Source of the DNA: Promethearchaeota archaeon
GTDB taxonomy: Archaea > Asgardarchaeota > Lokiarchaeia > Sigyniarchaeales > SOKP01
Length of the DNA: 19,897 nucleotides
Reading direction: 5' to 3'
Assembly: GCA_016840165.1 (NCBI GenBank)
Contig: JAEOSU010000058.1
Location: forward strand, 1-19,897
Notes under the pieces: model-generated
Database searches by the model: none
The model's input: only the letters and a program-made list of their open reading frames with translations
What the model was told of the DNA's origin: nothing
Shown: positions 1 through 16,491 of the stretch, one piece after another
Layout of the letters: the number at the start of each line of letters is the position of its first letter
Position numbering within the stretch: position 1 is the stretch's first letter
Program-made: the position numbers and the translations under genes

Positions 1-16
1 TTAAAGGAAATTAAAC

Positions 17-1153
17 ATGAGTGATGTAGAAGAAAGAGTAAGAACTCTTATTGAAAAAAGTATTATTATTGATACTCTTAGTCATGGTCCTATCTTATGG
101 ACGGAACCATTTATTAAAAAAACAGATGATTTGCTTGCATTAGACCTTAGCCCATTCAAGATAGTACAAGAATTGATAGGGGATTTTTCCAAAACAGCTT
201 CTTCTGATGAGAATTATTATGAGAACTTGAAATCAGCATGGAAAAAATCAGGAGTTGACTGTGTAAGTTGGACTGTTGGGCCCATTCATGAGAAACCATA
301 TTCTTTAGAGGGAGTGAGACATAATCTTGCGTTTCTTACGTATCTTTTAGATAATAGACCTGAATTTTTCGTTAAAGTCGTAAAAGCAGATGATATCCAA
401 CTTGCTAAGAAAGCAGGAAAGGTGGGAATTATTTATAATCTTCAAGATTTAGGATTTATCGGTACTGATATTGAACTCTTAGAACATTTTTATTTTATGG
501 GCATTCGAGTGATGCAATTAACCTATAACAGTAAAAATTCTATAGGGACAGGGTGTACAGCAAGACGAGACAGAGGTTTAACTGAATTTGGCTACCAGGT
601 AGTGGAAAAGATTAATGAACTTAAGGCAGTTGTCGATGTTTCTCATTGTGGGGCTCAAACTTCGATGGATGCCGCAGTACATTCTTTGGGGCCTATAATT
701 GCGTCGCATACGTTAGCGGAAAGCGTTTTTAACCATGATAGAGCTAAATCTGACAAATTTTTGCAAACTGTTGCGGAAAAAGGGGGATATATTGGAGTCT
801 TAACAGTCCCTGGCTTTTTAACCAGCAATTTTAAAACCACAATAGAGAATTGGTTGGATCATATCGATTATATCATAAATTTAGTAGGAATTGAACATGT
901 AGGCATTGGTACGGATTATTATGGTTATTCAGTACCAAATAATCTAGCCAAGAAAATTGATGAGCTAATTGGTATTTTAGGCTTTCGACAAGAACATAGA
1001 GCCACATTTACCGATAAGATGCAAGATTTTGAAAGTTATGAAAAGTTTCCTAATTTAATTAAAGGTTTAATTTCAAGAGGATATAGTGATATAGAAATAA
1101 GTAAAATCGTGGGAGAAAACTTCTTACGGGTTTTTAGAAAAATCTGTGGCTGA
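17..1153 (+). CDS. Membrane dipeptidase (peptidase family M19, amidohydrolase fold)
   Basis: Motifs MGIRVMQLTYN, GLTEFG, VVDVSH, PIIASHT, DHIDY, HVGIGTDY and C-terminal KIVGENFLRV are typical of renal-dipeptidase-like M19 enzymes. Confidence 0.9.
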   Translation: MSDVEERVRTLIEKSIIIDTLSHGPILWTEPFIKKTDDLLALDLSPFKIVQELIGDFSKTASSDENYYENLKSAWKKSGVDCVSWTVGPIHEKPYSLEGVRHNLAFLTYLLDNRPEFFVKVVKADDIQLAKKAGKVGIIYNLQDLGFIGTDIELLEHFYFMGIRVMQLTYNSKNSIGTGCTARRDRGLTEFGYQVVEKINELKAVVDVSHCGAQTSMDAAVHSLGPIIASHTLAESVFNHDRAKSDKFLQTVAEKGGYIGVLTVPGFLTSNFKTTIENWLDHIDYIINLVGIEHVGIGTDYYGYSVPNNLAKKIDELIGILGFRQEHRATFTDKMQDFESYEKFPNLIKGLISRGYSDIEISKIVGENFLRVFRKICG

Positions 1154-1159
1154 CAATTC

Positions 1160-2185
1160 TTAAGGAAATTTTTCCACCAATTCTTTTTTTCCTGTCTCCG
1201 AAGATTTATATAATGCACTGATAAGGTATAAAACTTTGGAGCTCTCTTCAATAGTATTTAGATACGGTTTATTATGTAAGATCCAATCTGCATAAGCTTC
1301 TAAGCTGCCTGCGATGTATTGGCTGTAGTTAAGTCTATCTTCACAAGAATATTCATCAATTCCAAACCATTGCAGGGAAGAAGGAACAGCAGCTCTACAT
1401 GTTGCGCGTCCATACTGCCCAAAAACTAAAAGTTCCGAAAGTGCCCTAGTAGTTTCAAATGGAGGTTGGACAATCATAGAACTATTCACTTGAGCTACGA
1501 CTCCATTTTCAAATTCTATGATTCCAAACCCGAGATCTTCAACATTAATTTTGGTGAATTTTACGGTATTTACCTTTCCTATGACCGTCTTTGGTTCTCC
1601 AAATGCCCAAATTAGTATATCAAGTATGTGTGACGCTTGTGTGAGCAAAGTACCGCCTCCCGCATACTTTTTAGTGCCTCTCCAGCTATTATTTTCATAA
1701 TACTCATTGTCTCTGCTAAAAAATATATTACAATTAGCGTAATAGACATCACCTAAAATGCCTTTTTTTATACCACTCACTAATTCATAACAGTTTTGAT
1801 CATAACGGTATTGATAGTTAAAACCGAGTTTTAGGTGCGGATATTCTTGGGTCAAATTATAAATTTCACGAGCGTCTTGAACGGAAATCCCAACTGGTTT
1901 TTCGCAAAAGACGTGCTTGTCATGTTCAAATGCTAATCTAATATGCTTTTTATGAAGATGATGAGGTGTAGCAATGTATAAGACATCGAACTCCTCCTTT
2001 TCAAGCATCTCGTTCAGATCGGTGTAAGAATGGTCTTTTCCAGATATTCTTCGAGCTCGTTTTAATATCTTATCTGCTGCGGCCACAAATTTGGCATTTT
2101 TAATCATTTTAAAAAAAGATTTAAATTCACAGGCAATCTCACCACAACCTATTGTTCCAATTGTTATATAATCTCTTTTAACCAA
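1160..2185 (-). CDS. Gfo/Idh/MocA family NAD(P)-dependent oxidoreductase
   Basis: Rossmann IGCGEIA, YIATPHHLH, HVFCEKP, GGGTLLTQASHILD; TTG start. Confidence 0.92.
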   Translation of the reverse strand: MVKRDYITIGTIGCGEIACEFKSFFKMIKNAKFVAAADKILKRARRISGKDHSYTDLNEMLEKEEFDVLYIATPHHLHKKHIRLAFEHDKHVFCEKPVGISVQDAREIYNLTQEYPHLKLGFNYQYRYDQNCYELVSGIKKGILGDVYYANCNIFFSRDNEYYENNSWRGTKKYAGGGTLLTQASHILDILIWAFGEPKTVIGKVNTVKFTKINVEDLGFGIIEFENGVVAQVNSSMIVQPPFETTRALSELLVFGQYGRATCRAAVPSSLQWFGIDEYSCEDRLNYSQYIAGSLEAYADWILHNKPYLNTIEESSKVLYLISALYKSSETGKKELVEKFP

Positions 2186-2253
2186 GATCTCTCGCCTATA
2201 AGAAAATTAAAATTATTTTATGGTAAAATATCTTGAAAGGCATATGAACAACT

Positions 2254-3051
2254 TTATTTTAAATCTTGTTCTTCTGCTGTATCATATAAATAGCTAAAAT
2301 AATAATTAGCCGCTGGTCCGAAAGCAATATGATCAGTGATCACTCCAAAATAAGATAACTTCTTAAAAAACTTTTGAGTTAAAATTATAAATGCGTCCTC
2401 CCCTTCGTCTATTACAGTGCAATTTCCAAAAACCTGGTCTCTGGAACGAATGACGGCGATTTTAGCATATTTAAGTAATAATTCCTTGAATTCTTTATTC
2501 TTGAAGGCTTCCTCCTCGACAAGAATACGAATATCAGTCACTCCTCTCGCCCGGGCTTTCTTAATATCCTCATAAAAGATATCTAAAAATTCAAAATCGG
2601 ATGCCACAATATATAGTGCCATTTTTGCTTGCTCAATTAAAGATAAACTTTTCGTAATGCAAATATTTCTCCCCCGATGGATATAGAGAGCAACTTTTAT
2701 GGGAGTATCATGAGATTGATAAATTGGAGTTAAGGTGTTAATAATTATATTTGAATCTTTATCGAAACTGTCATTATATTGCTTCTTGGCTATTATTAAT
2801 GCTTCATCGGGGCTTTTTGCAAAATATCTACTAGGTCTGGACTCCTCTTCACGCACAAGAAATTTCTTTTCCTTTTCTAACTGAGTAAGAATGTTATAAA
2901 TCCGTGAATAAGGAACGCCCGATGCTTCAGAGAGTTCTCGAGCATCCATTGGTCCTTTAATAATGAGAGTGAGATATATGGCAATTTCATAATCCGTTAA
3001 TCCTATGCTTCTTAGAGACTCTTTCACATTTTCTGGGATTTCTTTTGACAT
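2254..3051 (-). CDS. TrmB family transcriptional regulator
   Basis: N-terminal wHTH LRSIGLTDYEIAIYLTL...ARELSEASGVPYSRIYNIL, then RPSRYFAKSP and a C-terminal effector-binding domain (ARARGV...IRILV). Confidence 0.92.
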   Translation of the reverse strand: MSKEIPENVKESLRSIGLTDYEIAIYLTLIIKGPMDARELSEASGVPYSRIYNILTQLEKEKKFLVREEESRPSRYFAKSPDEALIIAKKQYNDSFDKDSNIIINTLTPIYQSHDTPIKVALYIHRGRNICITKSLSLIEQAKMALYIVASDFEFLDIFYEDIKKARARGVTDIRILVEEEAFKNKEFKELLLKYAKIAVIRSRDQVFGNCTVIDEGEDAFIILTQKFFKKLSYFGVITDHIAFGPAANYYFSYLYDTAEEQDLK

Positions 3052-3098
3052 GATTGAACACCATAAATCAAAATTGTCTATTTTAAGAGGTTTTGGAC

Positions 3099-3114
3099 AT
3101 TTATAAGAATTTTG
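3099..3114 (-). promoter_or_regulatory. Putative archaeal BRE/TATA promoter of the TrmB gene
   Basis: Minus strand CAAAATTCTTATAAAT: an A-rich tract then TTATAAAT (3106-3099), 47 nt upstream of the ATG at 3051. The AT-rich background limits certainty. Confidence 0.4.
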
Positions 3115-3179
3115 TTATATATGAAATATATTATCTTCCATCATATTAATTGTTAGTCATATAGTTTTCCATATAATTT

Positions 3180-3255
3180 ATGGACAAATCACCCTAGCAT
3201 AGAGTGTGTCACCTTGAAACAAAAGTTTATTCTCAAGGCTCATACGATTGTCCAT
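3180..3255 (-). promoter_or_regulatory. Eukaryote-like SECIS element (selenocysteine insertion sequence)
   Basis: Minus strand AUGGACAAUCGU-AUGA-G-CCUUGAGA-AU-AAA-CUUUUG-UUUCAAGG-U-GA-CAC-ACUCUAUGCUAGGGU-GAUUUGUCCAU. AUGA (3243-3240) and GA (3210-3209) form the kink-turn core. The upper helix CCUUGAGA/UUUCAAGG has 8 bp, and AAA (3228-3226) lies 11 nt after AUGA. An outer helix AUGGACAAUC/GAUUUGUCCAU closes the structure. Confidence 0.75.
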
Positions 3256-3446
3256 TTTATATGGTTGAGGAAGAATTTTATGAAGTAAATACATCCTCAT
3301 CCTCCTCCATCATTATTGCCATCAATTGGTAGCTGGTTAAATAAATATATGAATATTATAGATATACCAGCAATAATCAATACTAAAACTAAAGCAATAA
3401 GGAAATAGGATTTTTTATTTAGATTCATATGAATATCATCTGACAT
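3240..3446 (-). CDS. Unannotated small membrane protein, probable selenoprotein (68 aa with Sec50; 49 aa if UGA is a stop)
   Basis: Hand translation: MSDDIHMNLNKKSYFLIALVLVLIIAGISIIFIYLFNQLPIDGNNDGGG-U(TGA 3299-3297)-GCIYFIKFFLNHIKWTIV-stop(TGA 3242-3240). It has a basic patch, a clear TM helix, a Gly-rich linker, a UxC motif and a SECIS directly downstream. Alternative ATG at 3428. Confidence 0.7.
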
Positions 3447-3465
3447 AATTTCTATTATTATTTAG

Positions 3466-5091
3466 TTATTCAAAATATTTTTCTTTAAATTTGTGTCTTA
3501 TTATTTCGGGATTATCGCCATTATTTAATACGAAGTTCTCATAAAGTTGATACAATTGCGTCATATCTTCATATAATTGCTTAGTATTAATCGATGGAAA
3601 GATATTTACGTCAGGTTGAAGTGCATCGCACCTTGCTATTAAATCTGACCATTCCATTTCATTTCCAATATATTCCTGATAAGCTTTCGCACATCTTAAT
3701 GCAGCACCTAATGCAGCTGAATCTGATACTTTTAAAACTTTGATAGGGGTATTGAATACGTCTGCTAATACTTGAAGTATTTCACTATTTTCAGAACCAC
3801 CTCCTGTGGCAATTATTTCAGTGGGAGCTGATTTTAACCATTGAGAATGAAGGCGAATTGATAAACATTGGGCTTCGATGATTCCGCGGACATTTGCTTG
3901 GATATGATTTGCATCAAAGCCAAACCGATAAACTCTAGGTTCTAAAACTAATGGTACGATTTCGGGATAAAAGTATGGAAGCATAATTCTTCCATTATTT
4001 CCCGGGGATGTTTGCTTTAGAATATTAGAAAATTCATTCCAGGTAAGATGAAATAGAGCTTTTATCGCTTCTCGTGCCAAAGAGCCATTTTTAAAACAGA
4101 TTAATCCCATATAATCCCCAGTTGGAGCTCCAAATACGTGACTTGCCCCACTTAAATCTAAAGTGAGTTTTTCCATATAACTAAAATAAGTGTCGCTTGT
4201 TCCCAGGCTTATCGCAACTTGATTTGGATTAATCAAACCAACACCAATTAAACTGTTTGGATTATCTCCGGACCATGGTAATAGTTTTGTTTCTGATGAA
4301 AAATCATACCGTTCAACGAAATAAGGGCTAATGTTTCCAAGGATTTTAAAGGATTCCGTTAAATTTGGAAGCTTTTGTTTAAGATTAGGAGCTGTTGCAT
4401 CTATTGCGTTATCATTCCAGCGTTTTTTCTCTATGTCCATCAAATTCATTCCTGCTCCATCTCCATGGTCAATAGGAGAGTTATTTCCTAATAAAAGAGA
4501 GGATAAAAACGAACTAATAAGGTGTATATAAGCCGTATTTTGATATTTTTGGGAATCTTCCTGATAAAATTTCCTGATTTGTGGTCCAGAAAAACGTTCA
4601 AAAGTATTTGAACCAGTGAGTTTGATGGTTGATTTTAGCCCTCCTAGTGCTTTCCGAATTTCTTTACATTGCTTTGAAGTGCTCGAGTCCATCCAAACGG
4701 GACTCAACTCTCTTGAAAAGATTTTTTTAAGTTGGGATACCAATGAACCACCTGGTTGAAGATTATTTACAGTTTTCAGGAAATTTTTATTTAAATAGAC
4801 CGTTCCATGTTGTTGGGCTGAACCACTTATGGCTTTAATTTTATTTAATGGAAAGCTTTTTTCCTGAAATATCGTAAATAAGGTATCTAAGGCTTCAACC
4901 CACATTAGCGGATTTGAAAATACTTGCTTTCCATCCTCCGAGATATAAACCCCCTTTTGAGTTTGGTAATGGGGTAAATCTTTATAATAATTAATAGATA
5001 TTTTTATTTGGATGCTTAATGATTCATCATCAATTATTATTCCAGTCAAACTCTGAGTAGAGCAATCGATCCCTAGGAAATAGTTGGTCAT
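3466..5091 (-). CDS. xylB: Xylulokinase (FGGY family), eukaryote-type XYLB/Xks1-like
   Basis: LGIDCSTQSL, SGSAQQHGTVY, PVWMDSST, ERFSGPQIRK, LISSFLSSLL, DGAGMNL, GDNPNSL, ISLGTSDT, ATGGGSEN, AALGAA. Confidence 0.88.
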   Translation of the reverse strand: MTNYFLGIDCSTQSLTGIIIDDESLSIQIKISINYYKDLPHYQTQKGVYISEDGKQVFSNPLMWVEALDTLFTIFQEKSFPLNKIKAISGSAQQHGTVYLNKNFLKTVNNLQPGGSLVSQLKKIFSRELSPVWMDSSTSKQCKEIRKALGGLKSTIKLTGSNTFERFSGPQIRKFYQEDSQKYQNTAYIHLISSFLSSLLLGNNSPIDHGDGAGMNLMDIEKKRWNDNAIDATAPNLKQKLPNLTESFKILGNISPYFVERYDFSSETKLLPWSGDNPNSLIGVGLINPNQVAISLGTSDTYFSYMEKLTLDLSGASHVFGAPTGDYMGLICFKNGSLAREAIKALFHLTWNEFSNILKQTSPGNNGRIMLPYFYPEIVPLVLEPRVYRFGFDANHIQANVRGIIEAQCLSIRLHSQWLKSAPTEIIATGGGSENSEILQVLADVFNTPIKVLKVSDSAALGAALRCAKAYQEYIGNEMEWSDLIARCDALQPDVNIFPSINTKQLYEDMTQLYQLYENFVLNNGDNPEIIRHKFKEKYFE

Positions 5092-5379
5092 AGCTAATGA
5101 TTCATAAGCAATTTTTCTTTAATAATCATTAAATGGATTAGTATTATAAAAGCATTTGAATCAAAAACTATATGAAATTGATAAGTTTCAAATTAAAATT
5201 AAAAGAATTATTAATTTTAAAAAGAGAGGATTTGGGGTTTTAGTTTTTTTTTTTAGTTTCTCGACAAAATTTGGAAATTCAAACATTTTATCGAAAATTT
5301 TAATTATAGTTTTGCACATTATGTATATAGAAAAGTAGATTTTCATAAATTAAAAAAAAATTTTTAAAGGGTATTAAAA

Positions 5380-5799
5380 ATGGATTCTATTGATTTAAAA
5401 ATATTAGAAGAATTAAAAGCGGATGGGCGAAAGTCATTTAACGATATTGCACAGGTTGTTGGCAAGACAGAGGCGACAGTTCGACGACGCGTACGAACTC
5501 TTGAAGATGATAGTGTTATAAAAAAGTACACTATTGAATATAATATTGATTCTAAGCCAAAAACACGAGCCACAGTTAAGATTGAACCCGATTTCAAGGA
5601 AATTAAGTCTATATTGAAAGAACTAATCCAGATTGAAGAAATTACAGATATTTGGCGTTTAAGTGGTGATTGTGGACTTTTTATCAAAGTAGAAATTCCC
5701 TCAATAGAGCAGTTTAATCCTTTAATAGAGGAAAAAATTTCCCAGATTGCGGGAGTAAAAATAATGGAAACCTGTTTTATTACAGATATAATAAAATAA
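5380..5799 (+). CDS. Lrp/AsnC family transcriptional regulator
   Basis: MDSIDLKILEELKADGRKSFNDIAQVVGKTEATVRRRVRTL HTH plus a RAM domain (WRLSGDCGLFIKV). Confidence 0.95.
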   Translation: MDSIDLKILEELKADGRKSFNDIAQVVGKTEATVRRRVRTLEDDSVIKKYTIEYNIDSKPKTRATVKIEPDFKEIKSILKELIQIEEITDIWRLSGDCGLFIKVEIPSIEQFNPLIEEKISQIAGVKIMETCFITDIIK

Positions 5800-5959
5800 T
5801 TCTACAAAAAAATTCCTTTCTTTTATATTTTTATCATTATAGTTACTGGTATAAATAAAAATCATTCCATAATAACTAATAATTTTTAATTTATAACCCA
5901 TTCAATAATAAATTTTTAACCAATATCAATATTAATTACATTTAAAAAAAGGGAAAGAT

Positions 5960-6448
5960 ATGGCAATTCAGAAAGGGGATATAATTAAGGTCGAATATGA
6001 GGGTCGTTTGGAGGACGGTACCATTTTCGATAGTACAGAACTGAACGAAGGCTTACCACTAAAATTCGAAGTAGGAAAAGGACAACTCATTCGTGGTTTT
6101 GATAACGCAGTAGTTGGAAAGGAAGTTGGAGAAGAATTTGAAATTAATATTCAACCTAATGAAGCATATGGAGAGTTTGATCCCGCTTTATCTCAAACTA
6201 TCAGTAGAAACCAATTTCCGGAGGATATAACTCCAGAACCCGGAATGATGCTAAGAATAGATGGGCCCAATAATACATATTCAGTTGCTTGGATAAAAGA
6301 AGTTGATGAGGAACATGTTACGATTGATATGAACCATCCATTAGCTGGGAAAGTTCTAAACTTTAAAATTAAAATCGTGGAAACAGGATGTGAGCCTGAT
6401 CCACCTGAGATGTGCGGTTGTGGCTGTGATTGTGATCATCAGCATTAA
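5960..6448 (+). CDS. slyD: FKBP-type peptidyl-prolyl isomerase, SlyD-like, with Cys/His metal-binding tail
   Basis: VEYEGRLEDGTIFDST, GQLIRGFD, PNEAYG, IDMNHPLAGKVLNFKIKIV; tail CEPDPPEMCGCGCDCDHQH. Confidence 0.92.
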   Translation: MAIQKGDIIKVEYEGRLEDGTIFDSTELNEGLPLKFEVGKGQLIRGFDNAVVGKEVGEEFEINIQPNEAYGEFDPALSQTISRNQFPEDITPEPGMMLRIDGPNNTYSVAWIKEVDEEHVTIDMNHPLAGKVLNFKIKIVETGCEPDPPEMCGCGCDCDHQH

Positions 6449-6573
6449 TTCTATTATATACTTTTAATATTTTTTATTATCTTCACATATTTCATTTTTA
6501 AAAGAAACAATTTAATTTATTTATTTTAAATAATTCTGATATTTAGTTAGATTAATCCCTCTGGGAATAAAAT

Positions 6574-7899
6574 ATGAGCTATAAATTTACGAAAGAAGAA
6601 TTAGAAAACCTTTTGGTGGATTATAATAAAATTGCTCTGAAAGATCTTGATATTCCAAAAGAGGTTTGTATCTGGGATGAAACCTTAAGGGATGGGGAAC
6701 AAAGTCCTACCGTGTACTTAACTTTGGATGAGAAGATACACCTTACTAAATTAATGGATGAAATTGGAGTAAAAATCATAGCTGTTGGATATCCCGCAGT
6801 CTCAGAATCAGAAAAGACTATCGTTAAAACAATAGTAAATGAAGATTGTAAGAATGCCTCAATCGTAGGGATTGCCCGTCCAAGAAAAGAAGATATTGAT
6901 GCATGCATAGATGCGGATCTCCAAGAAATAGTTATTTTCATGCCTATTTCACCAATATTTATGAAAACATTAAAGTTAACGGAACAACAAGAATTAGATC
7001 AGATTGACGATGCAATTCATTATGCGAAAGATAACGGTTTTAAAGTTAATTGGGTATCTGAAGATGGGACTCGAGCAGAATTTGAGCATTTAAAAAACGT
7101 TTTTCTGACTGCTATCGAAGCAGGAGCTGAAAGAATTGTATTAGGAGATACTGTGGGAGTGCTTACTCCTTATTCTACATCTTATCTCATCAAAAAAATT
7201 AAAGCAGAAGTAATTCATGCCCATAGAGATTCAAAATGTATGGGGATTCATACCCATAATGATTTTGGACTAGCGGTTGCGAATACAATCACTGGGGTTT
7301 TTGAAGGATGTTGCTACCCTCATACATGTATAAATGGATATGGAGAAAGAGCTGGGAATGCAGCCTTAGAGGAGGTTGCCACCATTCTCGAACGAATGGG
7401 AATTGATACCGGAATTGATCTCACCAAACTTCCCGAATTAAGCGAAATATGCGAACGGTATTTTTGCAAGCCATTATCTCAATATAAACCAATAGTAGGA
7501 GATTATGCATTTTCGCATGAAAGTGGACTTCATATTGCCGCAATTCTCGCACATCCCTTAACATATGAACCTATAAATCCGCGTATGGTAGGAAGACGTC
7601 GAACTTTTTACTTAGGAAAATTTTCTGGTTCCAAATCTATTTTAAACGCATTAAAGCAAAAGATTAAGGTATTAGATCTCGATATCCCCGATGAGATTAT
7701 TAAAAAAATCGTAAACGAAGTAAAGAAAAAACATGAAGAAACTTCGAAAGAAGAGCTAAGAAAATCATTTGATATCATAAAAGAAGAGTTAAAGAAAATT
7801 ACAAAAGGAGTTGGAGATAAAGAATTTTTCGAAATTGTAAATAAGTACGCTCAACCATATGTTCCCGAAGATTTTAAACCAAAAAATGAAACGGATTAA
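6574..7899 (+). CDS. DRE-TIM metallolyase: homocitrate synthase / 2-isopropylmalate / citramalate synthase family
   Basis: WDETLRDGEQSP, LGDTVG, IHTHNDFGLAVAN, NGYGERAGNAALEE, AFSHESGLH, LGKFSG. No LeuA regulatory domain is apparent, so an AksA/homocitrate-synthase-like role is favoured but not established. Confidence 0.88.
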   Translation: MSYKFTKEELENLLVDYNKIALKDLDIPKEVCIWDETLRDGEQSPTVYLTLDEKIHLTKLMDEIGVKIIAVGYPAVSESEKTIVKTIVNEDCKNASIVGIARPRKEDIDACIDADLQEIVIFMPISPIFMKTLKLTEQQELDQIDDAIHYAKDNGFKVNWVSEDGTRAEFEHLKNVFLTAIEAGAERIVLGDTVGVLTPYSTSYLIKKIKAEVIHAHRDSKCMGIHTHNDFGLAVANTITGVFEGCCYPHTCINGYGERAGNAALEEVATILERMGIDTGIDLTKLPELSEICERYFCKPLSQYKPIVGDYAFSHESGLHIAAILAHPLTYEPINPRMVGRRRTFYLGKFSGSKSILNALKQKIKVLDLDIPDEIIKKIVNEVKKKHEETSKEELRKSFDIIKEELKKITKGVGDKEFFEIVNKYAQPYVPEDFKPKNETD

Positions 7900-7921
7900 T
7901 TTTTATGTTATTTCTAATCTC

Positions 7922-9268
7922 TTACAATAGGTCATTAATCTCGTCAAGCTTTTTCTGAGTCTTTTTTAAATCTATCTTCAATTGAGCTGTTCTTTTTTCA
8001 TACGCTTTTTTGTCCATTGAGCCGGCTTGATACTTTTTTTCGATGAAATCCAAGAGATTTCTCATAGAATTTAGCTTACTTTCTAAAGCATCTCTTTCAG
8101 CCTTTAATTCTTTCTTTTTAAGTTTCTTTTTAGGTTTATCTGAGGGTCTAAATTTAATACTCTCTTCGTCGTCTAATTTTGTTAATCCAATAAAGGGTCC
8201 ATTTCCCTCTTTTTTGAGGCTAACGGGCTTTGGAGGTAACTCTGTAAGATTTTTATCGGTTTGCAAGAGAGAATCAAGAATATCTTCTGAATTTGCATGT
8301 GAAGTTTTAGGAGGTTTTAATTCTGGTGGATGTTCGAGGATTTTTTCATCTAACTCTCCAACAGATCTCACTAATTTATCAATAGTAGTCTTAATGGTAT
8401 TAATTTGATTTTGGAAAATCTTTAGTAGTTCATATAATTCGCTTTCTTTAGAGATTTGCATAGAAAAATCAATATCAATTTTATTATTTCCACCACTTAT
8501 GGTTTCTCTTGGTCCCGAAAAATAATTATTAGTTTGAACCACTGGTTGAGTTATTACTTCAGGTACTTCTCCTTTTGATCGTAATTCCATTCTATAATCA
8601 GAGACTAACCATGTAAAAATATTGTAAGCTAAAGTAGGATGTTCATCTGAATTAAATCCTCCTCCAACATTATCTCGAAACATTTCATAACTTCCAATAG
8701 CGCATACCCTCCCTTTATCTGGTTGGGAAACACAGATGAGTGGGGTCGAAAATGGTTCAGATGTCTCATTTGAAGATGCAATCGAAAAAGCATTCCCCAT
8801 TATTGTAAGGGAACAACCAGATCTATAACAGATTGAAGAAATTCCATTAGATATTGGATGAGGTGGAATAAAAGCGGTGATTATAGGCAAATTTTCTAAA
8901 CCTAAATTAGTAGTTCCATCTAAAACTTGATCATTTTCAAACAGGATCCCAAAACGTTGACTTAATTCACTTAAATTACTATTTCGCCCTTTATCCCCAC
9001 CCGCATGAGATAATAAAAATAAGCCCCCTCCATCTTCTTCAACCCAATTACAAATTTCTGTCATTTCCATAGAAGATATTTTAGCAAAATCTGGGCACAT
9101 AAATACTAACACATCAAATGGTTTTAATGATAATTGGGTTATAGGGGTTTCTAAATAATTATAACACATGAAACCATTGGAATTTAAAAAATCCCGCATT
9201 TCCGTGAGATTCTCATCAATTTTTCCTCGCGGTTTGTGGGCTAAATCAAAGGCAATATTGTATGGCAT
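7922..9268 (-). CDS. GIFT (GldG/IFT52-like, DUF4350-like) domain protein with Pro-rich linker and C-terminal coiled coil / helical hairpin
   Basis: IAFDLAH, FDVLVFMCP, NWVEEDGGGLFLL, NLSELSQRFGILFENDQVLD, HPISNGI, GRVCAIGSYEMFRD and NIFTWL match the GIFT pattern; heptad-rich C terminus. Confidence 0.7.
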   Translation of the reverse strand: MPYNIAFDLAHKPRGKIDENLTEMRDFLNSNGFMCYNYLETPITQLSLKPFDVLVFMCPDFAKISSMEMTEICNWVEEDGGGLFLLSHAGGDKGRNSNLSELSQRFGILFENDQVLDGTTNLGLENLPIITAFIPPHPISNGISSICYRSGCSLTIMGNAFSIASSNETSEPFSTPLICVSQPDKGRVCAIGSYEMFRDNVGGGFNSDEHPTLAYNIFTWLVSDYRMELRSKGEVPEVITQPVVQTNNYFSGPRETISGGNNKIDIDFSMQISKESELYELLKIFQNQINTIKTTIDKLVRSVGELDEKILEHPPELKPPKTSHANSEDILDSLLQTDKNLTELPPKPVSLKKEGNGPFIGLTKLDDEESIKFRPSDKPKKKLKKKELKAERDALESKLNSMRNLLDFIEKKYQAGSMDKKAYEKRTAQLKIDLKKTQKKLDEINDLL

Positions 9269-9384
9269 AATTTTTCACTAACATTTTTTAAATTCATTCT
9301 AATTATTAATAAGAATAATCATCTTCCTATAAATAAATATCATTTAACGCATAAAAAACCTATTTAAAATCATCAAAATAAGGT

Positions 9385-10482
9385 TTAAAAAATGGTTTTG
9401 TCTCCAATAATTAAATTATCTTTACTGATATTCTCAATTTGTGCATTACTTCCGATAAGTGAACTCTCAGAGATCAAATTTTTTATGGATACTTCTTGTT
9501 CAATTACACAATTTTCTAAAATCGAATTTTCTATATAGGATCCACTGCCGATTGAAACATATGGCCCAATGACTGAATTAATGATTTTTGAATTCTTCCC
9601 AATAAAAACTGGATTTTTTATAAAGGACTTATCAATAATAATTTGCTTCTCTGGATAATCTTCCTTTCTGGTGAAATCTTGTTCTAATAGAAATTTATTT
9701 CCATGTAATAATGCAGATGGGCGTCCAAAATCTAAAATGCCTTTTTTAAGGTTAACTGCGGCAATTTTAAAGCCATTATTAACTAAGTCTTGAAGGCTTT
9801 CAGTCAGATAAACCTCTTTTGAATTTTCTGTTCTCTTATCCAAGTAATTTTTAATATTATTAAATAATGCGATGGTTGTTGAATGTGAAAAGGCATAGAT
9901 TCCAGCAATGGCTAAGTTTGAGATATAAGTTTCTGGTTTTTCTATTAATTGCTGAATAATCATATTTTTATCAGTTTTTACGATTCCATATGAACTCGCT
10001 TGCTTTTTTGGGACTTCCATGACCGTTATAATCCCATCTACATTTGATTCATAATAGCGATACATGATATAGGAATATTCATCTATTGGGATCATATCTG
10101 CCAAAAAGATTAAAGCTCCTTCCCTTTTATCCTCCTCATTATTCTTGTATTGAATTTCTTTAAAGTTGTTATGAGCAAGATATACGGCTTCTCCTAAGCC
10201 CCAGAAGAAAGGTACATCATCATTATATCCTCGAGGTTCTTGTTCAATAAAAGTTAATTTAAAGGTGTTTCCATACTTTTGTTTAACAAATTCTTTGATT
10301 TGCCGTTTTTTATACCCTACAATCAAAATCAATTCCGTAGTAGAATCAAAAGTATCACGAAACTTATCTAAGATATGTTCCAATACAGGCTTTCCTGCAA
10401 CTTGAATAAATGTTTTTGGTTTACTTAAAGTAAATGGACGAAGTCTTGAACCAATTCCCGCACAAGGACCAATAATTTTCAT
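9385..10482 (-). CDS. Sugar-phosphate nucleotidyltransferase (long glucose-1-phosphate thymidylyltransferase-like) with C-terminal left-handed beta-helix
   Basis: AGIGSRLRPFTLSKPK, YGIV, LIEKP, AIAGIY, YLTESL, LDFGRP and hexapeptide repeats (NSVIGPYVSIG). Confidence 0.9.
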   Translation of the reverse strand: MKIIGPCAGIGSRLRPFTLSKPKTFIQVAGKPVLEHILDKFRDTFDSTTELILIVGYKKRQIKEFVKQKYGNTFKLTFIEQEPRGYNDDVPFFWGLGEAVYLAHNNFKEIQYKNNEEDKREGALIFLADMIPIDEYSYIMYRYYESNVDGIITVMEVPKKQASSYGIVKTDKNMIIQQLIEKPETYISNLAIAGIYAFSHSTTIALFNNIKNYLDKRTENSKEVYLTESLQDLVNNGFKIAAVNLKKGILDFGRPSALLHGNKFLLEQDFTRKEDYPEKQIIIDKSFIKNPVFIGKNSKIINSVIGPYVSIGSGSYIENSILENCVIEQEVSIKNLISESSLIGSNAQIENISKDNLIIGDKTIF

Positions 10483-10537
10483 TTTATTAATTAATTGAAT
10501 TATGAGAAATTACTTAAACTTTGATATAGTTTTGGTA

Positions 10538-11314
10538 TTAATAGAACCGAGATTTATCGGAATCAAATACTCTTTGCAAATAGCCGAAGATTAGATCCAA
10601 ACCTTTTTCCTCCTTAATAGTGCAAGGGATCAATTCAGCTGTTGAGCCCATTTGAATAAAAACATCCGAAATCAGGATCGAAAGCTCTCTTATCAAACCA
10701 CTTTCTCGTTCGTTTGTCGATTCCTCTAATGCTTGAAAATCCTGGCTCCAATTTACAATCATATCGATTTGATCTTCATCTAATAAATCTGATTTAGCTA
10801 AAAGATTGATTTGGGAGATCTTTCGAAATCGAAATTGTACTGAAGCAGCTAGTAATAACGTAGAAATAAAGCCATTAGGTCTTAGTACCAAATTAGAGTC
10901 AAACAAAAAAGATACTGCTCTTTGAACATCACCAATCCCTAGAGAACTTGCAATCAACGGTCCTGTTTCTCTAAATGCAAAGAGTTCAAGCTGACCTGCA
11001 GTATCAACAAACACCCAGTCGGGATTTAAGTCATCAATCTCATCCTTAATGTCATCCAAGTAGTTTACCATTAAATCTGAGGCTAGAATCATTGCTCCAT
11101 TGGGGCCTAATCCATACTCAGTCATGATATCATCGAGCAGAATATATTCTCTAATATCAATATCGGGAGAGTAAGGAATAATTTTGACTCCAGGATCTAA
11201 ATTGATAGCAATAGCTGATATCTCTGGGTCTCGATTTAAAACATATTCTTTTAACAATCCAGTGAGCGTCGATTTACCACTACCTGCTGTTCCGATAAAA
11301 TAATTTATTAGTAT
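10538..11314 (-). CDS. GPN-loop GTPase (start revised upstream to ATA 11314; 258 aa)
   Basis: YGLGPNG, NLDPG, DTAGQLELF, AKSDLL. The Walker A motif GTAGSGKST lies in frame upstream of the track's TTG (11257). The only plausible starts before it are ATA 11314 or ATA 11308. SD GAGGGA is at 11327-11322 and an in-frame TGA lies just upstream. Confidence 0.9.
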   Translation of the reverse strand: MLINYFIGTAGSGKSTLTGLLKEYVLNRDPEISAIAINLDPGVKIIPYSPDIDIREYILLDDIMTEYGLGPNGAMILASDLMVNYLDDIKDEIDDLNPDWVFVDTAGQLELFAFRETGPLIASSLGIGDVQRAVSFLFDSNLVLRPNGFISTLLLAASVQFRFRKISQINLLAKSDLLDEDQIDMIVNWSQDFQALEESTNERESGLIRELSILISDVFIQMGSTAELIPCTIKEEKGLDLIFGYLQRVFDSDKSRFY

Positions 11315-11404
11315 CTTCTTATCCCTCTCTCAAATTTATCATCTATTTCTTAAACTAGACTAATCTAGCATAATTAAAGAATACTACTTATTATAGATTG
11401 AATA

Positions 11405-12385
11405 TTATTCTGGTTTCTTCAGGTCACTAAGTTCAATTTGATTTGATTTTTGTTTTTGAAGCCGCATTATCTGATTATTGATTGCTTCCTCAGACTTTTT
11501 CATCAGTTCCTCCTCGTTTAGGGTAAGTGCTTTATGTTCATCTTCACTCATAGGTTTTAAGATATCTTTTATACTAAATCCATTATGTTTTTCGGTCACT
11601 TTCTTAAATTTTTCTTTCATTTCTTTGATTACTAACATTTTTACGGAAGAGGCACTCGATTTAATTAAACTAGCTACCTTTTCAGAAGTTACTCTGCTCA
11701 TTGAAGCCCCAGGAATTCGTTGAGTTAATCGTTGGGGAGGTCCACTGGGGATACTTCCCAATGGTAGATTCTGGAGGGTGCTGGTGAGTGTTTTAAGATG
11801 GCTTTCTATGTTTTTTAGAGTTTGATTGCTTTCAGTAATCATTGTCATTAAAGATTGATCGACAGTATAACTTTCTACGCTATTCTTTTCGTAGACATAA
11901 GTTTTTTCCTCTTTATTTTGTCCATAATCCCTTTTAACTTCTTTGATAACCCTTTCTTTTGTAAAATTTTGACGCTGATTACGATTTTTAGTCAAATCAA
12001 TATATTGAAATCCCACATAACAATCTTCATTTATCCAAATATCAGAAATATTGAATTTCTCGCTGAAAGAATACTCGATTCTATTACCTGAATATAGATA
12101 AATACTTAATTGCAAGATTTTAAATTGAAGATCGTCATAACCTTGAATCTCATCCAAATCGATAGAAAAACTGAGGTAATCTTGAGAATGGTAAATTTTT
12201 TTTACTGAAACTAATGAGGGTGCTTGTCGATAATAGATCTGATCTGTAACAATTTTGGAGATTTCGAAGCGAAAATTTAGGCGTTTAATTTTATCGGGAA
12301 GAAAAAGAACTTGCTCTTCCTCATTTTTCTTGAATTCCAGAAATAGTTTCTTCTGATCGTCCCAAAATATTTGGAACAATTCCAT
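11405..12385 (-). CDS. Hypothetical protein: globular N-terminal domain, coiled coil, Pro/Ser-rich linker, helical C terminus
   Basis: 326-aa ORF filling the space between neighbours; heptads ITESNQTLKNIESHLKTLTSTLQNL then PLGSIPSGPP. Confidence 0.75.
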   Translation of the reverse strand: MELFQIFWDDQKKLFLEFKKNEEEQVLFLPDKIKRLNFRFEISKIVTDQIYYRQAPSLVSVKKIYHSQDYLSFSIDLDEIQGYDDLQFKILQLSIYLYSGNRIEYSFSEKFNISDIWINEDCYVGFQYIDLTKNRNQRQNFTKERVIKEVKRDYGQNKEEKTYVYEKNSVESYTVDQSLMTMITESNQTLKNIESHLKTLTSTLQNLPLGSIPSGPPQRLTQRIPGASMSRVTSEKVASLIKSSASSVKMLVIKEMKEKFKKVTEKHNGFSIKDILKPMSEDEHKALTLNEEELMKKSEEAINNQIMRLQKQKSNQIELSDLKKPE

Positions 12386-12508
12386 TTTATAATTAAACCC
12401 TAATTATTATCGTTTTCTAAGTATATTAATTAGGATGAAATCATCAAACTAACTTTAAAATCTTCTGAGTTTATGGAATTTATAATTTATAAGAATGAGA
12501 ATAGAGTC

Positions 12509-12889
12509 TTAATTCTTCAACTGTGAAAGGTAATAGATAGGCTTTTTTATTGCTTGCTCAAAATACTCAATTTCTTCTTTAGAATGATCTCCAATATAAT
12601 TATTAACATCTATTATCAGGATTGCATCATGGTTGTGTAATTTCTGAAGCGCAATAGTCTGTAATCTTTCCCATTCCTCTTCAGAGAATTTTTGTTTATT
12701 GAATAAACCATCTACAGAGCAAATATACACTTGTTTCTCATAAACAATTTGAAGGATCGATTCAACCTTGAGAAAATAATCCTTAAATCGAGAGGATCCA
12801 ACTAAATAGATGTTTTTTTCCTTGATAGAGGAGAAGGTATAATTTTTAAATTCGTCCAAGAAATTCTTATTTAGCCGTTCTTTCTTCAT
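12509..12889 (-). CDS. Nucleoside 2-deoxyribosyltransferase-like (NDT / DUF4406-like) fold protein; probable start ATG 12889 (126 aa)
   Basis: IYLVGSSRFKD ... KLHNHDAILIIDVNNYIGDHSKEEIEYF ... KPIYYL matches the NDT-like pattern with its catalytic-type Glu. The track's longer start overlaps the divergent MTase. Confidence 0.65.
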   Translation of the reverse strand: MKKERLNKNFLDEFKNYTFSSIKEKNIYLVGSSRFKDYFLKVESILQIVYEKQVYICSVDGLFNKQKFSEEEWERLQTIALQKLHNHDAILIIDVNNYIGDHSKEEIEYFEQAIKKPIYYLSQLKN

Positions 12890-12926
12890 GATAATTGTAC
12901 TAATATTGACAAACCTAAATTTGTTT

Positions 12927-13724
12927 ATGATTTTAAACAACATCCACCAAGAAGATAACTTAACTTTTCTAAAGAAATTAGAGTCAAATTTCATTGATTT
13001 AATTTATATCGACCCTCCATTTTATACTGGAGTTGATTATAAGGAGTTTTCTGATTTATGGAGCTCGTTAGGAAATTATTTATTATTCATGGAAGAGCGG
13101 ATTGAAGAAATGCATCGTGTTTTAAAAAAGTCAGGAAGCTTTTATATTCATTGTGATGCAAATGCTTCATATGATCTGAAACCACTCTGTGACAAAATAT
13201 TCGGTAGAGATAATTTCCGGCGAGAAATTATCTGGAATGTTGCCAGTGTTTCTGGATTTAAAAGCCAAGTAAAAGGTTGGGTTCGACAGCATGATATTAT
13301 TCTTTTTTATACAAATAGCAATGAATACACGTTTAATAAGCAATATATTCCTTATAGAGAAGAGTATATTAAAAAAATGTTCCGATATAAAGATAAAGAT
13401 GGGAGAGTTTATAGAAAGAGGAGAGGAGGAAAACAATATCTAGATGAGAGACCTGGGAGGTTAATCGGGGATGTATGGAACGACATTTATTCCTTTCAGA
13501 CCAGAACAAGATCGAAAGAATATTTAGGATATCCTACACAAAAACCTGAGGATTTGTTGGAACGAATCATATTAGCATCATCAAATGAGGGTGATATTGT
13601 GGCAGATTTTTTTTGTGGCTCAGGAACCACATTAGCGGTGGCTAAAAAGTTAAATAGGCAATGGATTGGAGTAGATAACAATCCAAATGCAATTGAATTA
13701 TCCAAACAAAGATTAAATATTTAG
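12927..13724 (+). CDS. Orphan site-specific DNA methyltransferase (N6-A/N4-C, beta-class motif order); probable start ATG 12927
   Basis: IDLIYIDPPF (motif IV) precedes YPTQKPEDLLERII and VADFFCGSGTT (motif I); no nuclease gene adjacent. Confidence 0.93.
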   Translation: MILNNIHQEDNLTFLKKLESNFIDLIYIDPPFYTGVDYKEFSDLWSSLGNYLLFMEERIEEMHRVLKKSGSFYIHCDANASYDLKPLCDKIFGRDNFRREIIWNVASVSGFKSQVKGWVRQHDIILFYTNSNEYTFNKQYIPYREEYIKKMFRYKDKDGRVYRKRRGGKQYLDERPGRLIGDVWNDIYSFQTRTRSKEYLGYPTQKPEDLLERIILASSNEGDIVADFFCGSGTTLAVAKKLNRQWIGVDNNPNAIELSKQRLNI

Positions 13725-13777
13725 GAAATTTATTTGTAATATTCTATTTATGAAAATAAATTAAGAAGGATGAGAAA

Positions 13778-14131
13778 ATGACTAAACCAAAATTTGCATT
13801 ATTTGCTTTTAATGGAGATCCGATGTGTTTTATTCATGTAATAATTAATGCCTTAGACATGCTTGGAAAAGGTTATGATGTGAAAGTGATCGTAGAGGGT
13901 TCGGCGACAAAATTAGCTCATGAATTTGAAAATGAAGGTAATCCTTTTTATAAACAATATAATGATTTGAAAAACTCTAGATTAATTGATTGTTTTTGTA
14001 AAGCTTGTAGTAATAAAATGGGTTCCTTAGATGATGTTGAAAGAATAGGTTTTCGAACTTGTGCGGAATTGATGGGCCATCCAAGCATGGCACGATACAT
14101 TGAACAAGGTTATACGATCATTACTTTCTAG
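13778..14131 (+). CDS. DsrE-like small protein
   Basis: MCFIHVIINALD, VKVIVEGSAT, CFCKACS, MGHPSMARYIEQGYTIITF; SD-like AAGGATGA upstream. Confidence 0.8.
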   Translation: MTKPKFALFAFNGDPMCFIHVIINALDMLGKGYDVKVIVEGSATKLAHEFENEGNPFYKQYNDLKNSRLIDCFCKACSNKMGSLDDVERIGFRTCAELMGHPSMARYIEQGYTIITF

Positions 14132-14156
14132 CAAACTTAACTACTTGGGATTAAAA

Positions 14157-14990
14157 ATGGCATTTAGCATCGAAATTGTATCTGGATTGCTATTAGGTAT
14201 TGTGGCAAATATATCCTTATATTTAGGAAAAGGGATTCAAAAATTTGCCATTGAAGGATATAAAGATCGCGGAAAGTATAAAGGAAAGGGTAAGAATACA
14301 GGCATATGGATATTTGGAACAATTTTAACATCCTTGTATATGTTTATTCAATGGATTGCATTATTATATGCTCCTATTAACATAATCGCTCCGATAGAAG
14401 GATTAGGATTAGTTGTGTTAGTGATTTTCTCTTATTTTATATTAAAAGAATCGATTTCAAAGCCTCAAATATTTGGAATTATATTGATAATTATAGGGAC
14501 AATTGAAATTACCCTTTTTAACGAAAACCCAAGTTCAGTTCCTTTTAATGCTTTGAATTTTGAACTATTAACAATCATTTCAATAATTCTCATTGCTATT
14601 GAAATCGCAGTTTTCTCTTTTTCAAAATATTACAAACTAAAAGCGATTGGGTATATATCTGGATTGATAGCTGGAACGTTCATGGCTTTTCAAACAGTTT
14701 CTAAAAGAATTACTGCCATTCCAAATTCTCTGCTTTCAACAGCATTTATCTTCATAACCTTAATAATGGCAGTTTTAACATTAATTATGACCCAATATGC
14801 ATTTACAAAAGCTAATGCGAATATTGTTGTTCCATGTACAACTTCTTCCAGTATAATTTTAGCGATACTAATTGGAGTGATTTCACTTAGTGAGCAAATG
14901 ATAGTTAATCAAATTATTGGAGTAGTATTTCTTATAGGAGGAATCATTTTGTTAACGGGATTTAACTTAGAATTAGAAAAAAGTAAGTAA
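14157..14990 (+). CDS. DMT superfamily transporter, NIPA-like (possible Mg2+ transporter); probable start ATG 14157
   Basis: About 9 hydrophobic segments; GIQK, WIFG and ALLYAPINIIAPIEGLGLVVLVIFSYFILKE resemble the NIPA signature region. Confidence 0.72.
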   Translation: MAFSIEIVSGLLLGIVANISLYLGKGIQKFAIEGYKDRGKYKGKGKNTGIWIFGTILTSLYMFIQWIALLYAPINIIAPIEGLGLVVLVIFSYFILKESISKPQIFGIILIIIGTIEITLFNENPSSVPFNALNFELLTIISIILIAIEIAVFSFSKYYKLKAIGYISGLIAGTFMAFQTVSKRITAIPNSLLSTAFIFITLIMAVLTLIMTQYAFTKANANIVVPCTTSSSIILAILIGVISLSEQMIVNQIIGVVFLIGGIILLTGFNLELEKSK

Positions 14991-15022
14991 AACAGTGAAA
15001 AATTAAATTATCACTTAAATGA

Positions 15023-16120
15023 TTACATTTCTCTATAAAATTTTTCAAACTCCTCTAATTCTTGCTCAATCTCTTTCAATTTTTTAATATCCTCTTCAGT
15101 AGGGTTTGGGATTTCTGAAAAAAGGTCATATTCAGGAATATTTAGGTTTTTACGGACTTGTTCCTCTATTTTGGCAAATGGTAATCTTGTAGCGAAAAAT
15201 TTTATAGACTTGAATTTAAGCTTACTCAATTTTGACTCCCACTCTTCGGCAAATTTACCGGATTCGATATCGGTTAAAATTTCTTTTTGCTTTTTTCCAA
15301 TTTCCTTCGAAATGCCTCGGAATTTTATCCCACGACTCATCGACCCATATTGCGAGGTTTGAGAATGGAAGTTAGTTTGTTTCACTAAACCAACTTGAGC
15401 CATCTTCTCATATGTATAGCTCATTTCACCTGACATAAACATTTCCACTAAAACTGCCTCCGGAGGATATCCCGCATCAAGGAGAGTTTTCATGGCCTTT
15501 AATAAGACTTGACCAAACGCAGGTCCAAACCCTTGTTCATTAAATAAATCCAACACAGCCTCCTGTTTAAAGGTAACTTCGATAGCTCCCTTTATAAGTG
15601 CTCCAACTCCTTTACTTAGACCAAGCAGTATCTTTTTTGCATCACCAGAACCATCTTGGTGAACTCCGATAAAAGTGAAAAATCCTTTTTTATTCAGATA
15701 ACATTCTCTCACTCCAATTCCGATCATACGTGGAGCAATAAGTAATATATCTATGTTTGAAGGCAGTGAAATTATATTGAATGCGAGATTATAACCGCTG
15801 GCAAAAATAATTGTATCATTTTCTTTTAAAGACGGAATAATTAGATCATCAAATAGTTGCTTCATAATCTCATCAGGGATCAAAATGAAAAAGATTTGAG
15901 CTCTTTTTAGTACCTCTTTAATACTATAGCTTTCAAAACCATCCTTTTCAGCTCTTTTTTTATATTCATCTTCTCGATTTCCAATAATAACTTTGAGTCC
16001 GGAATCTCTTAGATTAAGAGCTTGGGCTCTTCCTTGATTGCCATAGCCAATTACAGCAATTAGTTTATCCATAATAAATGTTAAGTCTCCATCACTTTCA
16101 TGGTAAACATTAGCTTTCAT
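15023..16120 (-). CDS. ilvC: Ketol-acid reductoisomerase (class I-like)
   Basis: IAVIGYGNQGRAQALNLRDSG, LIPDE, FASGYN, IAPRMIG, TFKQEAVLDLFNEQ, AGYPPE, SQTSQYG, IESGKFAEEW. Confidence 0.92.
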   Translation of the reverse strand: MKANVYHESDGDLTFIMDKLIAVIGYGNQGRAQALNLRDSGLKVIIGNREDEYKKRAEKDGFESYSIKEVLKRAQIFFILIPDEIMKQLFDDLIIPSLKENDTIIFASGYNLAFNIISLPSNIDILLIAPRMIGIGVRECYLNKKGFFTFIGVHQDGSGDAKKILLGLSKGVGALIKGAIEVTFKQEAVLDLFNEQGFGPAFGQVLLKAMKTLLDAGYPPEAVLVEMFMSGEMSYTYEKMAQVGLVKQTNFHSQTSQYGSMSRGIKFRGISKEIGKKQKEILTDIESGKFAEEWESKLSKLKFKSIKFFATRLPFAKIEEQVRKNLNIPEYDLFSEIPNPTEEDIKKLKEIEQELEEFEKFYREM

Positions 16121-16184
16121 ATTCTCATCTTGATATTTTATAGATCGATTACCAACTAAGAGTAATATTTGAAAATTATTACCT

Positions 16185-16243
16185 TGTTTATTAAATTGGG
16201 ATGAAAATTTGATAAAGATTGTTATTTTTTCTGATTGTCACAA
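16185..16243. repeat. 59-bp direct repeat, copy 1 (upstream of ilvC)
   Basis: tgtttattaaattgggATgaaaatttgataaagattgttattttttctgaTtgtcAcaa; 55/59 identical to 18344-18402. Confidence 0.95.
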
Positions 16244-16491
16244 AACAAGTGGTTAAAAAGAATGAAATCAAGCAAAAAGTATGGAAATTTTGCATATTCT
16301 CGTAGTTATGCTCAACATTATGATTATAGCGTGAAGAGAATTTATGTTATGTTTAATCGTTCTTAGAAAACGGTTGGAAAAAAAAATTTAGTAGAAAAAT
16401 ACTCTAAGATTTAATTTATAAATAATTTTTAAGAAAAAACCTTGAAGTATTTCAAAGACAAAAAAAATAGAGAAATAAAAAAAATATTTAA

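Follow-up and report, generated by a model that had tools for sequence, protein, structure and literature searches.

The window analysed here is a 19,897-nucleotide stretch of DNA from a Promethearchaeota archaeon (assembly GCA_016840165.1, contig JAEOSU010000058.1, positions 1 to 19,897), contig C37 of a 3.6-Mb metagenome-assembled genome (MAG), 31.6% G+C. Between an upstream gene for an FGGY sugar kinase, which has TAA as its stop codon, and a downstream gene for a TrmB regulator, the minus strand carries a small open reading frame (ORF) that is interrupted by an in-frame TGA and followed by a stem-loop of the type known as a selenocysteine insertion sequence (SECIS). Read through this TGA as selenocysteine (Sec), the frame gives a protein with, in order, (i) a K/R-rich N-terminus, (ii) one transmembrane (TM) helix at about residues 14-36, (iii) an acidic and Gly-containing linker, NQLPIDGNNDGGG, (iv) the sequence GGG-U-G-C, and (v) an 18-residue hydrophobic tail. 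Sec50 and Cys52 make up a U-x-C pair, with a hydrophobic helix C-terminal to it. The Sec codon also overlaps an ATG (as ATGA), which starts a 40-codon ORF in another frame (3300-3178). A scan for promoters and terminators returned nothing above chance. No RNA sequencing run was listed as containing the stretch, and a raw-read run (X21) gave no reads on it, neither outcome bearing on expression. Taken with the comparative evidence below, the locus is very probably a genuine, unannotated selenoprotein gene, its UGA at 3299-3297 being recoded to Sec through a lokiSECIS element at the gene's own stop codon (Table 1).

A first-pass annotation of this DNA had pointed to an unannotated minus-strand ORF in the gap between xylB, ending in TAA, and trmB, to a first TGA lying in a U-x-C motif after three glycines, and to an AUGA stem-loop 53 nt past it. 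The ORF is reproduced letter for letter, the position of the TGA in its motif is confirmed from the reading of the ORF, and the distance between the Sec codon and the AUGA is exactly 53 nt; the two flanking genes are those seen here as the FGGY kinase and the TrmB regulator. The overlap of the Sec TGA with an ATG is absent from that annotation.

Table 1. Coordinates of the locus, of the Sec machinery of the genome and of related genes. Plain numbers are positions in the window; the others are given by genome (G), contig (C) or locus (L) handle.
Feature	Position	Strand	Details
Selenoprotein ORF	3446-3243, stop to 3240	minus	68 residues, Sec = residue 50
First 49 codons, MSDDIHMNLNKKSYFLIALVLVLIIAGISIIFIYLFNQLPIDGNNDGGG	3300..3446	minus	ATG at 3446; K/R-containing N-terminus, TM helix, linker
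In-frame TGA read as Sec	3297..3299	minus	residue 50; preceded by three Gly codons
18 codons after Sec, GCIYFIKFFLNHIKWTIV	3243..3296	minus	G-C, then 16 more codons
True stop, TGA	3240..3242	minus	doubles as the UGA of the SECIS AUGA
lokiSECIS	3208..3243	minus	AUGA 3243-3240, 5' stem 3239-3231, loop 3230-3220 (AUAAACUUUUG), 3' stem 3219-3211, GAC 3210-3208
Small G+C hairpin and 3' strand of lower stem	3180..3206	minus	hairpin 3206-3190; 3188-3180 pairs with 3255-3248; minimum-free-energy fold
SepSecS	C63:14952-16109		371 bits
tRNA-Sec	C63:16334-16482	minus	adjoins SepSecS; found by BLAST with relatives' copies
SelB/EFSec	about 6 kb from SepSecS		246 bits, above cut-off
PSTK-like gene			E = 9.5e-45; full-length match, below the equivalog cut-off (153 bits)
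SelD			one in-frame TGA (Sec-SelD)
Paralogue in the same genome	G000:C82:26155-26337; L034:1557-1739	minus	MNLLKSKESKK..DGQNNGTG-U-GC-ILLMQILQQLI
SECIS of the paralogue	C82:26102-26149		60 bits
Decayed second copy	G020:C15:17227-17384; L102:2463-2620		..NTNGGG-R-PC..
Member with two TGAs (L168)	G109:C124:47288-47458		GGGG-U-P-C, then second TGA
Second candidate family	G000:C103:13494-13682; L040:1294-1482	plus	..IVS-U-GDRQRGFD..
SECIS-like element of the second candidate	C103:13701-13748		

The lokiSECIS was defined by an AUGA before a 9-bp stem, a position near the end of the coding sequence, an 11-nt loop that favours A at its first five positions and closes with an ultraconserved G, and a GA after the stem, replaced by AA in VhuU (PMC4989117). 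Each of these published features is found in the element of the window, with its 9-bp stem, its A-rich 11-nt loop ending in G and the GA that follows the stem, and a homologue in genome G041 carries the AA variant reported for VhuU. The 131-nt stretch 3300-3170 folds with -37.8 kcal/mol, compared with -21.5 +/- 3.2 for shuffled sequences (z = -5.1). A covariance model (R1) built only from the ten closest homologous family elements (alignment A2) scores the window element at 56.5 bits; in these ten, the stop codon either overlaps the AUGA or precedes it by 0-11 nt. The element described at first pass as a eukaryote-like SECIS is thus a lokiSECIS by both its published features and its score. Scanning the window with Rfam at gathering thresholds gave no match, a blank that is uninformative because the standard SECIS models miss lokiSECIS according to the literature (PMC4989117).

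The stem is maintained by evolution as a stem. Compensatory changes are present in five of the nine pairs among the ten homologues of alignment A2, and in all nine among 73 distinct family elements, where 91% of all cells are paired; sliding the partner column as a control lowers this share to 44-54%. Run over the whole genome, R1 gives seven matches: the window element itself, the SECIS behind three VhuD/MvhD-like genes, each with two in-frame UGAs, the SECIS behind a Prx-like gene with UxxU, that of a paralogous small TM gene on contig C82, and a weak one behind a further small membrane ORF, on contig C103. A model trained only on the window's family therefore recovers the SECIS of established selenoprotein genes.

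Two structural elements go beyond the published lokiSECIS description: the small hairpin at 3190-3206 and the lower stem. Across the genus, a hairpin of CCC/GGG type is found again straight behind the GAC of the SECIS and shows partial covariation, and the lower stem encloses both hairpins in the window and in its two closest relatives; the main claim is independent of the hairpin. In the second family of the class (f5), three members (L126, L145 and L166, from G058, G059 and G060) keep the AUGA, the 9-bp stem and the GA but have loops of 9, 10 and 12 nt. R1 misses these elements; their stems covary among the three.

The gene belongs to a family. Of the 42 genomes of the genus, 10 contain the motif GGN-GRN-GGN-TGA-GGN-TGY exactly once each; the reversed control has no occurrence. 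When 185,579 species genomes were scanned, the motif combined with the SECIS pattern, a TM ORF and at least seven stem pairs was found only in Promethearchaeota or archaeal MAGs, the carrier relatives being MAGs named 'Promethearchaeota' or 'Promethearchaeia archaeon' (Promethearchaeia is Lokiarchaeia in older naming); the same scan returned 21 bacterial matches and one further archaeal MAG, all with at most six pairs and no TM ORF. The family was then sought with a profile of 12, later 41, members in six frames with stops read through, a genome being counted when it held a strong match containing exactly one TGA. It is present in 37 of 41 genomes of genus g1, 44 of 54 of g22, 4 of 5 of g12, 3 of 10 of g21, 2 of 7 of g23 and all three of f5, that is, in about a hundred Lokiarchaeia genomes, which cover five genera together with a second family of the class. 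The profile search of the other classes of the phylum gave no such match.

Altogether 84 distinct proteins were extracted, of 44-112 residues (median 66). They share a layout made up of a K/R-rich N-terminus, a hydrophobic stretch of around 23 residues, a linker of acidic or polar character with a Gly run at its end, Sec, and a variable tail of, in most members, 10-33 residues. The TGA is kept in all 84, with the frame continuing past it, and is the sole invariant column in 41 aligned homologues, the protein otherwise changing rapidly away from the Sec motif. Assemblies made independently in other studies, among them those of two diverged strains, have the TGA and its neighbours unchanged while tail and TM segment vary. 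The surroundings of Sec are diverse: UGC, UPC, ULC, UIC, UQC, UAC, UVC and USC occur, as do UPSTC and UPNIC, and CGUGG, CxxU and CU. The Cys nearest Sec is at +2 in 50 of the 84 members, at +4 in 12, at +1 in three and between -1 and -4 in 12; U-x-C-x4-H is common to many. Some tails are minimal, with g12 members ending in ...PPPNGGG-U-G-stop or GGGG-U-C-stop and some g22 members in GGTG-U-G(G)-stop.

No variant with Cys in place of Sec was found, including in a profile search of 1.84 billion protein representatives. That search retrieves 48 proteins (P0002-P0049), which are either fragments of 44-52 residues (around 47) ending at the Gly run or longer products with W at the Sec position. The latter could be taken for full-length Trp or Cys variants, a reading that was rejected because their TGA codons have been translated with table 4: in the one W entry checked in DNA, the W is a TGA read in this way. 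Truncated and W-containing database entries alike are annotation artefacts that hide the family.

Three relatives of the gene deserve separate description. The paralogue on C82 has the best-scoring SECIS of the genome and adjoins a 300-residue ORF and a DUF4184/YdjM-like membrane protein. In G020, about 0.9 kb downstream of an intact gene, lies a decayed copy that has CGA for TGA, neither start codon nor TM segment, and a SECIS loop from which the terminal G and the A run are gone; the copy has the appearance of a pseudogene. In L168, GGGG-U-P-C is followed directly by another TGA, and the SECIS lies 117 nt downstream, a spacing like that of relatives with 33-residue tails; this additional TGA may stand for another Sec instead of a stop.

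Translation beyond the UGA leaves its own marks. Among the 66 members with a SECIS of at least seven pairs, the frame of the UGA stays open to within 25 nt of the SECIS in 59, compared with 10 for the +1 frame and 39 for the +2 frame, which is that of the overlapping ORF; for the 22 members whose SECIS lies at least 90 nt from the UGA, the corresponding numbers are 19, 1 and 6. The SECIS is always located past the stop of the extended ORF, at a distance from the UGA of 43-121 nt that tracks tail length. Where the tail is a single residue, a spacer of 37-39 nt holds this distance at 43-45 nt, which suggests that a minimum UGA-SECIS spacing of about 43 nt exists; such a minimum would make sense if the structure must remain folded outside the ribosome. 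Differences between homologues are distributed over the three codon positions as 2382/1427/3024 before the UGA, a coding pattern, and as 285/185/259 after it, position 2 again being the least variable.

The genome is equipped to decode the codon. PSTK-like, SepSecS, EFSec and SelD genes are all present (Table 1), together with a tRNA-Sec that has a UCA anticodon arm and matching ends but measures 149 nt compared with 89 nt in relatives, the extra length coming from two intron-like insertions of about 30 nt each in the D-arm and T-arm regions. These insertions are why Rfam and ARAGORN overlook it: the RF01852 search of this genome returned ordinary tRNAs only, and ARAGORN on the whole MAG gave no tRNA-Sec among 11-13 tRNAs in total. 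A hand-written search of the genome for anticodon arm plus acceptor did not find it either. Among the relatives, tRNA-Sec is picked up in 16 of 42 genomes of the genus that were searched, with scores of 58-64 bits. Genome-wide reassignment of TGA is ruled out, as TGA terminates 15.5% of long ORFs and is therefore a normal stop except where recoded. As an aside, only 11-13 ARAGORN tRNAs in a MAG that is 99.7% complete imply that many of its tRNAs are probably interrupted like tRNA-Sec.

Gene structure, conservation of the UGA, identity of the SECIS, presence of the machinery and distribution of the family have been shown computationally. The first-pass annotation's proposal of a membrane-anchored selenoprotein has held up at each of the points on which it was checked, namely homologues with a retained UGA and an open frame behind it, a covarying stem-loop (compensatory changes at all nine pairs in 73 sequences), a SECIS model shared with the VhuD-like and Prx-like genes of the same genome, and a full set of Sec-decoding factors.

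Topology, a selenium-sulfur redox role and any cellular function are matters that we infer from the proteins themselves. Mean net charge is +2.8 before the hydrophobic stretch and -1.7 after it, and the N-terminal flank is the more positive one in 83 of the 84 members. By the positive-inside rule the N-terminus is accordingly predicted to be cytoplasmic and the Sec loop to lie on the membrane's outer face. An AlphaFold2 model of the window protein has a helix at 9-38, a loop at 39-50 and a second helix at 51-67, Sec being the last residue of the loop. In the mechanism proposed here, the UGA would be recoded by the lokiSECIS that starts at the gene's own stop codon, by way of the intron-bearing tRNA-Sec, PSTK, SepSecS, EFSec and SelD. 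The product would be anchored by its one N-terminal TM helix, N-terminus in the cytoplasm, and a Gly-rich loop with Sec50 and Cys52 would be held at the outer face, where a short hydrophobic helix at the C-terminus begins. Sec and the nearby Cys would there constitute a membrane-tethered selenenylsulfide (Se-S) redox centre. That the family works by a reversible selenenylsulfide of this kind, acting on peroxides, disulfides or metals, is offered tentatively, as the likeliest and most economical chemistry but a proposal whose chances come close to even without reaching it.

Several observations pull against this picture. The tail after the UGA has a weak codon-position bias, with position 3 not the most variable, and is therefore loosely constrained, and the overlapping +2 frame is open in the 39 members counted above. 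The AlphaFold2 confidence is moderate (predicted local distance difference test, pLDDT, 70), and the positive-inside rule is the sole source of the predicted topology. Seven of the 84 members have no Cys within six residues of Sec, so the Se-S pair is not a universal chemistry of the family. The gene neighbourhood gives no functional clue either: the neighbours are the FGGY kinase and TrmB in g1, and a NUBPL-type ATPase, an ARMT1-like phosphatase, a major facilitator superfamily (MFS) transporter and a C_GCAxxG_C_C protein in g22, with no partner gene common to these two genera.

The main rival account, one without Sec, would have the gene end at the TGA as a 49-residue membrane microprotein, coupled through the overlapping ATGA to the ORF at 3300-3178 (MRMYLL...), with GGAGGAGG as the Shine-Dalgarno site of this second ORF and the conserved 'SECIS' as part of its coding sequence. 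The ATGA overlap and a GGAGG run are indeed there, more than half of the homologues have a +2 frame that is open as far as the SECIS, and one homologue, in G007, has a similar 47-codon ORF in that frame. The frame nevertheless closes early in 16 of the 22 members with a distant SECIS, and in G010 it is cut by a TAG inside the loop. The GGAGG run was rejected as a Shine-Dalgarno site: the Gly codons before the UGA vary at the third position within the genus (GGA/GGC/GGT/GGG), down to GGTGGTGGA, which destroys any such site, and the Gly run is therefore coding sequence. A stem that evolves by compensatory base-pair changes, and the same element behind VhuD and Prx-like genes where no such ORF exists, make the two-ORF account extremely improbable. 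If the UGA is read as Sec, the N-terminal hydrophobic stretch might still be a cleaved signal peptide, the mature product being a free secreted or surface selenopeptide of 25-45 residues. The order of K/R residues, some 23 hydrophobic residues and a polar acidic segment does recall the n-region and h-region of a signal peptide, and fast evolution outside the Sec motif would suit this view. A median stretch of 23 residues is, however, longer than a cleavable h-region and of a length usual for signal anchors, and the alignment shows no conserved cleavage motif of small residues; cleavage is considered unlikely, and anchoring by an uncleaved TM helix is preferred.

It is also conceivable that the anchored selenoprotein shares true ancestry with eukaryotic SelK and SelS and is possibly their archaeal forerunner, in which case it would be the first selenoprotein of eukaryotic type to be traced to Asgard archaea. 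These two are themselves grouped by architecture, with no mutual sequence similarity: an N-terminal single TM helix, a segment rich in Gly, Pro and positive residues, and Sec second or third from the C-terminus, within a cytosolic C-terminal part (PMC10650576). The family is likewise small, with a single TM helix near the N-terminus and a Gly run right before Sec (Gly at two to four of the last four positions in 74 of 84 members; Pro in some only, as in the PPPNGGG of g12), and its nearby Cys could form a selenenylsulfide, as do Cys174 and Sec188 of SelS. In g12 and some g22 members even the penultimate Sec after a Gly run (GGG-U-G-stop) is reproduced. Set against this, Sec is second or third from the C-terminus in only 7 of the 84 members, those with tails of one or two residues, and 19th from the end in the window protein, most members having instead a hydrophobic tail of 10-33 residues. 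The linker is acidic (mean -1.7, never positive), not basic and Pro-rich, and the charges predict the opposite topology, with Sec outside the cell rather than in the cytosol. In some lineages SelK and SelS have Cys homologues, and for this family none was found. The Pfam models SelK_SelG and Selenoprotein_S gave no match at E <= 10 to 12 or to 41 members, the search returning only scattered, TM-driven, sub-threshold matches to unrelated families. Finally, the family is found in just one class of Asgard archaea, and the shared motif is three to four residues long and could easily have arisen by convergence. Common descent with SelK or SelS is therefore very unlikely on present evidence; the family is not assigned to them, homology being unsupported and the likeness one of architecture only. 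In its workings it resembles a small membrane selenoprotein with a short tail or none. Of the earlier suggestion that the protein might be an analogue or a relative of SelK/SelS, the analogy of TM helix and Gly run stands and the kinship lacks support.

Other systems share single features with the family. FeoB-associated Cys-rich membrane proteins (PF12669) are also very small, with a Gly/Cys-rich motif behind a single TM segment; this model is matched by 2 of 41 members, the best with E = 0.18, far short of the gathering threshold, and the family differs further in carrying Sec, in being archaeal and in having no link to feoB. In the C-terminal Gly-Cys-Sec-Gly redox centre of thioredoxin reductase, Sec and Cys form a selenenylsulfide within a flexible Gly context. 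The family likewise places Sec and Cys within a few residues of each other in such a context, but with other orders and spacings (G-U-G-C, UxC, UxxxC, CxU, CxxU), no flavoprotein domain and a membrane anchor. VhuU, the Sec-containing piece of about 50 residues of the [NiFeSe] hydrogenase, is comparable as a very small archaeal selenoprotein with Sec and Cys a few residues apart. It is soluble, makes up the C-terminal end of the large hydrogenase subunit and bears a nickel-binding Sec-x-x-Cys-x-x-His motif. Identity of the window protein with VhuU was rejected: it has a TM helix, no hydrogenase Pfam match and no hydrogenase genes nearby.

In terms of decoding, the closest comparison is with the known lokiSECIS genes of Lokiarchaeota (HdrA-VhuD, VhuU and PrxL; PMC4989117, PMC11227280), which use the same decoding and the same 3' element just after the stop, a single covariance model finding both sets in the same genome. 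The proteins themselves differ, that of the family being tiny, membrane-anchored, of no known fold and without a Cys homologue in the searches made. Archaeal selenoproteomes are described as 11 families, all of them enzymes or enzyme subunits found by homology, with no membrane or micro-selenoprotein listed among them (PMC13188914, PMC11227280). The family protein is unrelated to any of these 11, as listed up to 2026 (2016, 2024 and 2026 literature); no Pfam family was matched above threshold, and no description of the family was found in the literature searched.

The genome also contains a second candidate family of small membrane selenoproteins, on contig C103. Its protein has two TM helices with the Sec-containing segment between them, no nearby Cys, and a weaker SECIS. 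Homologues from G020, G123, G141 and G054 align at the TGA, the last of them reading L-U-G-U-GG-U with three TGAs, and most homologues have a SECIS-like element with five to nine of nine pairs. At least two such families, this candidate being the second, are thus visible in this genome alone.

As far as the searches reach, the family would represent Sec-only membrane microproteins so far confined to Lokiarchaeia, present in most searched genomes of the two best-sampled genera, and its protein would be the first membrane-anchored archaeal selenoprotein. The absence of Cys homologues from the searches made is an argument that the function requires selenium itself. The SelK/SelS-like architecture turns the origin of that layout into a testable question. 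Around 75 additional natural lokiSECIS variants, together with an apparent minimum UGA-SECIS spacing of about 43 nt, are useful for understanding a eukaryote-like Sec system in archaea. Gene callers cut these proteins off at the UGA, and searches that begin from the SECIS can recover such hidden genes in Asgard genomes. Asgard archaea may carry a layer of Sec-only membrane microproteins that selenoproteome surveys based on homology are unable to detect.

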